Positions 1-635 of a stretch of 635 bases of DNA are shown piece by piece; within the stretch, counting starts at the first letter, position 1; each line of letters begins with the position of its first letter. A program made the position numbers and the translations under genes. The stretch is from Escherichia coli (lineage in GTDB: Bacteria; Pseudomonadota; Gammaproteobacteria; Enterobacterales; Enterobacteriaceae), in NCBI RefSeq assembly GCF_003334255.1, contig NZ_QOWU01000206.1, one strand, 5' to 3'. Under the pieces are notes generated by a model. That model saw nothing but the letters and a program-made list of their open reading frames with translations, searched no databases and was not told the DNA's origin.

Positions 1-635
1 GTTCTGGCATCGAAGTCTATGGCTTTCCCCAGCTCAACGATTGTGCGTACATCGCGATCGTTGTAGTAACGCCACGGGCAGGGGATCCCCTGCCGTTCGT
101 ATGAACGGCGCAAAATCGTGTTGTCGAAGTTGGCTCCATTTCCCCAAACCTGAACAAAAAATTCACCGGAGTTTTCGTCGATAAATTCTCGCAATTGTAA
201 CAGTGCATCATCTAACGGGATTTCATCGGTCATAATGGCAGATTGCGCTTCGCGTGATTGCTTAAGCCACCATTTAATGGTGTCCCGATCAATGACTCCG
301 CCAGCAGTTTCCAGATCGATAGTCTTACTAAATTCCGGTCCCATATCTCCGGTTTGCGGATCGAAAAATATTGCACCTATTGAGATGATCGGGGCATCAG
401 GATTTTTTCCCATGGTTTCAAGGTCAATCATCAGATGGTGCCACAACCTGCTGGTGGATGTGATAACGTGATGACCGTTCACCGTAATTAAGGGATCTGC
501 CGTCTCGCCAGTTTCACTATCGCTGGCGTGATCCTGAGCGCTGCCAGCATTCTCCTTGTGTGGATGTTCAGCGCCTTCCATTTCCTCCGGATCATCTTCC
601 TGAACTTCAACCTGATACTCTTCATCGAATGTTTC
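1..635 (-). CDS. Partial CDS (5' and 3' ends outside window): acidic low-complexity segment followed by a DnaQ-like DEDD-family 3'-5' exonuclease domain; possibly part of a prophage RecE/exodeoxyribonuclease VIII-like protein (hypothesis)
   Basis: Hand translation of the minus strand in the frame whose codons occupy 635..633 down to 5..3 gives 211 sense codons with no stop. The other two minus frames contain stops (e.g. TAA at 488..490 in the +1 frame). Exo I-like motif MIDLETMG is encoded by 408..431 (D-x-E-T-x-G). Exo II-like motif WGNGANFD is encoded by 123..146 (N-x-x-F-D, cf. RNase T/epsilon H-N-A-x-F-D). The hydrophobic strand [10 protein letters not shown] after Exo I fits the DnaQ fold. 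No good Shine-Dalgarno precedes either in-frame ATG (429..431 and 579..581), consistent with the true start lying beyond 635. Family assignment is from motif recognition only; no search was run. Confidence 0.85.
77..94. repeat. Perfect 18-bp palindrome GGCAGGGGATCCCCTGCC (contains GGATCC and a central GATC) inside the CDS; function unassigned
   Basis: Base-by-base check: positions 77..94 equal their own reverse complement (9 of 9 pairs); symmetry breaks at 76/95. The chance of a 9-pair perfect palindrome somewhere in about 630 positions is roughly 0.002 for random sequence. It encodes R-Q-G-I-P-C-P on the minus strand. No downstream T-tract, so it is not a terminator. Confidence 0.5.

Follow-up and report, generated by a model that had tools for sequence, protein, structure and literature searches.

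An acidic stretch at the end of a RecE-related connector, ahead of a predicted DEDDh exonuclease domain, in an Escherichia coli prophage protein

Results

The DNA analysed here, which we call the window, is a stretch of 635 nucleotides from an Escherichia coli contig (NZ_QOWU01000206.1). Our subject is the strongly acidic stretch of 48 residues that it encodes on the minus strand, ahead of a predicted DEDDh exonuclease domain, within a prophage protein of 823 residues related in part to RecE. Minus-strand frame 1 has no stop in any of its 211 codons in the window, and 6-18 stops are found in each of the other five frames. The acidic stretch comprises 12 Glu, 6 Asp, 1 Lys, no Arg and 3 His, which reproduces exactly the 18 Asp/Glu against a single Lys counted in a preliminary description of this DNA. 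That description had let the acidic segment run over 432-635, which is right for 492-635 but not for 432-491, a non-acidic junction piece. It had also placed the linker in frame with the exonuclease domain, with no stop in between, and so it is: frame 1 is open and the linker lies N-terminal to the PF16473 domain. A repeat scan of the window found no tandem repeats, a scan for RNA families gave no Rfam match and a composition scan found nothing. The low complexity of the acidic stretch is a compositional bias and is not derived from repeats. In the 823-aa protein of the nearest relative, residues 576-623 form the most acidic 48-residue segment, with a net charge of -17, and only 56 of 5000 shuffles of the residues of this protein gave any equally extreme segment of that length (at least 18 D/E and at most 1 K/R).

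Prophage DNA of several complete E. coli genomes matches the window at 99.5-99.7% identity, and the full-length context given for the window is inferred from these near-identical genomes. Of the 5426 complete E. coli genomes searched, 4713 contain related sequence and 4247 the acidic segment. In strains 99RCEF (locus L001) and STEC2018-607 (locus L002), the window lies inside one coding sequence (CDS) of 2472 nt, and its protein corresponds to residues 576-786 of the 823, identical in sequence, both DNA differences from L001 being synonymous. Upstream of the window region, the frame in these genomes extends for 575 codons to an ATG, so that the exonuclease domain is indeed embedded in a larger protein, as had been proposed from the window alone. 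RefSeq and phage annotations likewise give one single 823-aa CDS, and intact copies occur in many genomes as well as in the phage record mEp460_ev081.

The gene order at the locus is dicB, a ydfD-like gene (DUF1482), the gene for the 823-aa protein, an xis-like gene and int, and it recurs in phage mEp460, the PPompW phages and prophages integrated at different attachment sites. In the Qin prophage of K-12, ydfE (b1577) shares 89% identity with residues 1-256, before IS2E truncates it. Because of the shared Qin slot, this identity and the IS2E cut in K-12, we consider the 823-aa protein to be the intact form of YdfE; the published papers on ydfE hold no functional data on it. PADLOC returned a weak, generic DEDDh match alone, and for this reason we make no assignment to a defence system. 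Copies of the gene are often inactivated. Besides the IS2E cut, we observed an in-frame stop in place of W498, in the PKW motif (see below), in the Stx2a_JNE202033 copy, an annotated frameshift in PPompW_EH2246 and a split into two CDSs in vB_EcoM-606R7.

By BLASTP, the 823-aa protein matches K-12 RecE with E = 7e-64. Residues 470-626 are closely similar to RecE 450-592, identity to RecE falls to about 25% over residues 262-472, and no similarity to RecE is detectable for residues 1-261. The acidic stretch itself shares 71% amino-acid identity with RecE 542-589, so that the association with RecE-like nucleases, suggested in the preliminary description, is true by homology. What the two proteins have in common is a connector cassette of about 170 residues, from a DKLLAASRGEF motif to the acidic tail. 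Its elements are the motif DKLLAASRGEFxxGISDPNDPKWVKG (the PKW motif), a Q/E-rich stretch that follows it and a CxxC-x7-CxxC zinc ribbon (C551, C554, C562, C565) that is 92% identical to that of RecE. Compared over their whole architecture, both proteins show the same order of PKW motif, zinc ribbon, acidic tail and then catalytic domain. The similarity stops at query residue 626 (RecE 592), with ADPLIT facing ADPVIV, and the solved structure of the RecE nuclease, 3H4R, begins at about residue 606, just past the linker.

Beyond the connector, the likeness to RecE is not maintained. The NCBIfam exoVIII model NF007259 (PRK09709) matches residues 229-626 alone (model 252-603 of 877), and its score of 285.3 bits is far below the curated equivalog cut-off of 1269. 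The PD-(D/E)XK domain is absent from the C-terminus, where PF16473 is found instead, and the PDB sequence matches are to DexA and not to 3H4R. There is no recT neighbour at loci L001, L002, L008 and L011, where the xis-like gene and int directly follow the gene for the 823-aa protein; recE is followed by recT in K-12, Rac-SA53, 673R7 and Gifsy-2. By these homology criteria the 823-aa protein is RecE-like in scaffold and connector only, and is not a RecE orthologue. Nor is it exonuclease VIII, because its nuclease domain is unrelated to that of RecE. The 'exodeoxyribonuclease VIII' label given to it in several phage records is misleading, since it lacks PD-(D/E)XK, falls below the NCBIfam cut-off and comes without recT. 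Our literature search found no paper on a DEDDh variant of a RecE-type protein.

Pfam PF16473 covers residues 66-209 of the window protein (E = 3.7e-54) and, in the full protein, residues 641-813, the whole of the model (1-177 of 177, E = 5.5e-67); the domain runs on past window position 1 and stops near residue 813. The MIDLET motif aligns with the 'IDFET' motif of DexA, and H796 and D801 (in HNALDDA) are outside the window but in the full protein. All the predicted DEDDh catalytic residues, D646, E648, D746, H796 and D801, are present. The nearest solved structures are those of T4 DexA (PDB 8KEL/8KEN), and by sequence similarity the catalytic domain groups with T4 DexA, Rv2179c-like proteins, RNase T and Orn. 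Its relatives mostly stand alone, as proteins of about 180 aa whose start corresponds to residues 641-644.

An AlphaFold2 model of the full protein, built on a 102-sequence alignment, has folded regions at 100-210, 240-345, 385-435 and 641-820, the last with a predicted local distance difference test score (pLDDT) above 90. Confidence is low across most of 438-640. Residues 566-599 and 601-624 have a pLDDT below 50 and no secondary structure, and short strands are placed at 625-627 and 630-632, where the mean pLDDT is 37 (621-630) and 50 (631-640). Searches of PDB sequences with the connector gave nothing that covers the acidic stretch, 3H4R starting past it.

The linker also differs from its flanks in how it evolves. 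Pairwise Nei-Gojobori ratios of non-synonymous to synonymous change (dN/dS) are 0.06-0.28 in the flanking PKW motif, zinc ribbon and DEDDh regions, and 0.8-1.25 in the linker, where they are computed from only 2-5 synonymous differences in 48 codons. Fisher tests for an excess of non-synonymous over synonymous change in the linker gave p = 0.015, 0.031, 0.0007 and 0.001 in four comparisons that are not independent of each other. The low pLDDT without secondary structure and this enrichment of non-synonymous change relative to the flanks agree with the disordered linker proposed in the preliminary description. Taking composition, predicted structure and pace of evolution together, the acidic stretch fits the generic class of disordered acidic interdomain linkers, with a biased composition, no predicted structure and a faster evolution than its flanks.

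To describe variation only, we gathered linker variants by a word-indexed protein search with the connector, which returned fragments below 300 aa, almost all from E. coli. Among the 71 distinct variants of the E. coli group, the intact ones (neither frameshifted nor truncated) have a net charge of -9 to -18. In a library of representatives, the 80 residues before the DEDDh domain contain 12-20 D/E versus 0-10 K/R in 16 of the 17 diverged fusions of the RecE-scaffold type. In 12 of 14 diverged DEDDh fusions, the 60 residues before the nuclease belong to the most acidic 16% of the windows of the protein concerned, and in 3 of 3 RecE types, including Gifsy-2, whose linker is unalignable, they belong to the most acidic 4%.

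An acidic connector of this type precedes three nuclease domains: the short PD-(D/E)XK domain of K-12 RecE, a longer, Gifsy-like PD-(D/E)XK domain in Rac-SA53 RecE, which has the same acidic linker, and the DEDDh domain. A library representative, P0124, joins an N-terminus of the K-12 RecE type to a DEDDh domain. Because unlike nuclease domains follow it, we place the acidic stretch at the distal end of the connector cassette, at a seam where nucleases are exchanged. The junction piece (residues 624-640) does not align with RecE but with the segment that precedes the domain in other DEDDh fusions, for instance ANPVVVMNGNNI. The ADPLIT motif at its start has counterparts of the form A-[DN]-P-[LV]-[IV]-[TV] in K-12 RecE (ADPVIV) and in diverged DEDDh fusions (ANPVVV, PNSVVS). 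The motif falls exactly on the crossover point and may be a microhomology used in the domain exchange.

A protein of Shigella phage 75/02 Stx (P0150, 682 aa) has the RecE-type scaffold and the zinc ribbon, followed by a different acidic tail; it has no nuclease domain, its C-terminus is a short hydrophobic segment, and its annotation reads 'exodeoxyribonuclease VIII'. Downstream of its gene lie gam, a recT/bet-like gene and a lambda-exo-like gene. Since this protein carries the scaffold without a nuclease, the RecE-type scaffold is found as a module in its own right. The same connector leads to at least three nuclease domains, and to none in one relative, which suggests that scaffold and connector form an independent module.

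The zinc-ribbon motif, C-x2-C-x7-CPDCGAVMGDATY, lies directly before the acidic stretch, upstream of the window, and the same motif was seen in two other proteins. One copy is at the extreme C-terminus of the Dam methylase of a P2-like Enterobacter phage, where it is followed by '...TFDDLEAF*', and the other is within a hypothetical protein of an Aeromonas phage. On sequence, the ribbon looks like a mobile mini-domain. The diverged members P0135-P0147 and P0158 and the Gifsy-2 RecE are without it. In its place they have 'G-x-G-[IV]-F-[SD]-[IV]-x-x-L' and then '[ST][SD][ND]-V-Q-M-E-E', and both motifs are found upstream of DEDDh domains as well as of the PD-(D/E)XK domain of Gifsy-2.

A strongly basic open reading frame of 45 aa overlaps the acidic stretch in an alternative frame. 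We rejected it as a gene: it is a frameshifted reading of the GAA/GAG-rich acidic codons. Its peptide recurs at the ends of the frameshifted database proteins P0046, P0102, P0070 and P0075, and therefore reflects pseudogene products. The plus-strand reading frames of the window were also considered and rejected. Coordinates of all features are collected in Table 1.

Table 1. Features of the window and of related loci. Locations without a locus label are window positions.
Feature	Location	Strand	Remarks
Acidic low-complexity linker	492..635	minus	Residues 576-623 of the 823-aa protein; homologous to RecE 542-589
Junction piece	441..491	minus	Residues 624-640; RecE similarity ends here, ADPLIT vs ADPVIV
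ADPLIT motif	477-494	minus	A621-T626
Predicted DEDDh (Rv2179c-like, PF16473) 3'-5' exonuclease domain, part in window	3..440	minus	Residues 641-786
First DEDDh acidic motif, MIDLET	417..425	minus	D646 at 423-425, E648 at 417-419
Third DEDDh acidic residue, D746	123..125	minus	Position in the NGANFD motif
Alternative-frame reading frame, rejected	488-625	minus	45 aa
Zinc-ribbon motif	L001:5926-5973		Residues 551-566
Two other proteins with the zinc-ribbon motif	L013:649-1620; L014:2072-2971		
Shigella phage 75/02 Stx protein	L004:2049-4097		P0150
Gifsy-2 RecE	L007:2289-5174		No zinc ribbon
K-12 ydfE	L012:4079-4999		b1577
Stx2a_JNE202033 stop codon	L006:1166-1168		In place of W498
PPompW_EH2246 copy	L011:2086-4553		Annotated as frameshifted
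vB_EcoM-606R7 copy	L009:2110-4553		Two CDSs

Discussion

Our analysis points with good, if incomplete, confidence to the acidic stretch being an intrinsically disordered, strongly acidic interdomain linker, the end of a cassette shared with RecE, which serves as a tether and coincides with the seam of a nuclease swap. Such a linker would tie the nuclease domain at the C-terminus to the folded scaffold at the N-terminus, and would mark the point at which recombination between lambdoid prophages swapped one nuclease domain for another. It would act without sequence specificity, as a flexible and soluble spacer, repelled by DNA and giving the nuclease freedom of movement with respect to the scaffold. 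In this case selection would bear on charge and length rather than on the exact sequence.

Several of our observations weigh against this interpretation. Low pLDDT is only a proxy for disorder, and the linker dN/dS is derived from the handful of synonymous differences given above. When the window linker was mutated at random with the same number of substitutions, acidity within E. coli proved no better retained than in these simulations (p > 0.05 in 6 of 8 comparisons), although the simulation is confounded by regression toward the mean, because the starting linker is at the acidic extreme. As this test is not significant, the case for selection on charge comes from the comparison across families, which was made without phylogenetic control, and in two of the 14 diverged fusions, P0144 and P0154, there is no acidic stretch before the nuclease. 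Finally, the short islands ETFDEE, EEMEG and ETGE are well conserved in the linker, and the motif '[ST][SD][ND]VQME' recurs in diverged relatives.

These last points would also fit a specific element, either a DNA mimic that folds back on the face by which the nuclease binds nucleic acids and so inhibits it in cis, a role that the preliminary description had mentioned as speculation, or a short linear motif or decoy for a host or phage partner such as RecBCD, a restriction enzyme or a protein that binds the SSB tail. The net charge of -17 in 48 residues and the conserved islands (ETF-D-E-E, EEMEG, ETGE) inside an otherwise variable linker speak for this, as does the recurrence of '[ST][SD][ND]-V-Q-M-E-E...DE[TA]' ahead of the DEDDh domain of relatives that are about 45-50% identical, with TTSNVQVQ in the Gifsy-2 RecE; yet equating 'YQVE' of the window linker with the 'VQME' found elsewhere hangs on an ambiguous alignment. 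Two 2023 reviews describe the N-terminal part of RecE as of unknown function and report that linear-linear recombination is done by full-length RecE and not by its bare nuclease (PMC11611040, PMC11610958), which would also suit a specific role. However, the linker dN/dS is about 1, AlphaFold2 gains no confidence in the linker when the nuclease domain is in the same chain, and a net negative charge is found on each of the three types of nuclease domain too (-12, -15 and -19), which does not favour a general electrostatic fold-back. We therefore regard a specific element as unlikely. A wider version is decidedly unlikely in our view: that the cassette is a mobile regulatory adaptor whose acidic tail gates the attached enzyme, as a cis-inhibitory DNA mimic or a decoy for host factors, or that the RecE-type scaffold is a general delivery platform. 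The cassette moves among prophage proteins with unrelated nuclease domains, and the zinc ribbon is also found on a phage Dam methylase. Were the scaffold such a platform, its pairing with a 3'-5' DEDDh nuclease and no RecT would imply that it serves some purpose besides recombination, perhaps to interfere with the nucleic acids of the host or of rival phages.

The opposite possibility is that the stretch has no function at all, and is a relic spacer carried along with a recombining cassette in a cryptic-prophage gene that often decays. Substitution in the linker does look neutral, charge is not significantly retained within E. coli, and broken copies are many (K-12 ydfE, PPompW_EH2246, 606R7, Stx2a_JNE), with frameshifted linker products in the database. 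But a relic would sit badly with the intact 823-aa copies in mEp460_ev081 and in many genomes and with the clear purifying selection on the flanking domains, and the recurrence of an acidic stretch before the nuclease in lineages that cannot be aligned is hard to explain without selection on composition; we judge it very unlikely. There is also the chance that translation of the exonuclease domain begins separately, at an internal start, so that the acidic stretch would be the tail of another, upstream product or would not be joined to the domain; it seems to us slight in the extreme. Separate translation would accord with the free-standing relatives of about 180 aa, which begin at the equivalents of residues 641-644, and in-frame ATGs do exist at M594 (after GGAGGAA) and at M644. 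Yet no stop codon separates linker and domain, and RefSeq and phage annotations agree on a single 823-aa CDS. In CCGGAGGAAATG (window 579-590, minus strand; P591-M594), a strong Shine-Dalgarno-like GGAGG is 2 nt from the ATG, too close for efficient initiation, and these bases simply encode P-E-E, while M644 is without a Shine-Dalgarno-like sequence at a usable distance.

The disordered tether that we favour is an ordinary element in a widespread and already annotated prophage gene, and not a new kind of feature. It is of mild interest as the marker of a domain-swap seam within the RecE family, and linker and connector give a handle on what full-length RecE does beyond its nuclease.

Comparison with known systems

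DNA mimics that are already known, Ocr and ArdA for instance, are folded proteins. They share with the linker a dense negative charge, but theirs is held on rigid folds, with the charges arranged like the phosphates of DNA, whereas the linker is predicted to be disordered and no relative in the PDB covers it, so that it is predicted to lack the stable fold by which a DNA mimic is recognised. Acidic and disordered segments are also found on nucleic-acid-processing domains, as in the C-terminal tail of SSB, the tail of T7 gp2.5 and the acidic tail of HMGB1. These offer a model for how an acidic segment could regulate in cis or recruit a partner. They differ in being terminal tails with demonstrated partners and conserved terminal motifs, while the linker is internal and near-neutral in sequence.

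The catalytic domain of the 823-aa protein is of the same family (PF16473) as the free-standing Rv2179c-like and T4 DexA-type DEDDh exonucleases. Most of these relatives are single-domain proteins of about 180-230 aa, without an acidic linker or an N-terminal scaffold, both of which the 823-aa protein has. YdfE, the Qin pseudogene product of K-12, belongs to the same family as the 823-aa protein and has the same neighbours (dicB-ydfD-ydfE-intQ), but its truncation by IS2E has cost it the connector, the acidic linker and the exonuclease domain that the 823-aa protein retains. The closest parallel to the stretch studied here is RecE of the Rac prophage. Its connector (RecE ~455-592) is homologous, with the elements in the same order and the acidic part right before the catalytic domain, and recE and the gene for the 823-aa protein occupy the same slot in the prophage early-left operon, adjoining xis and int. 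The two part ways in what follows the linker, the nuclease of RecE being a PD-(D/E)XK enzyme that works 5'-3' and that of the 823-aa protein a predicted DEDDh exonuclease of the opposite, 3'-5' polarity.
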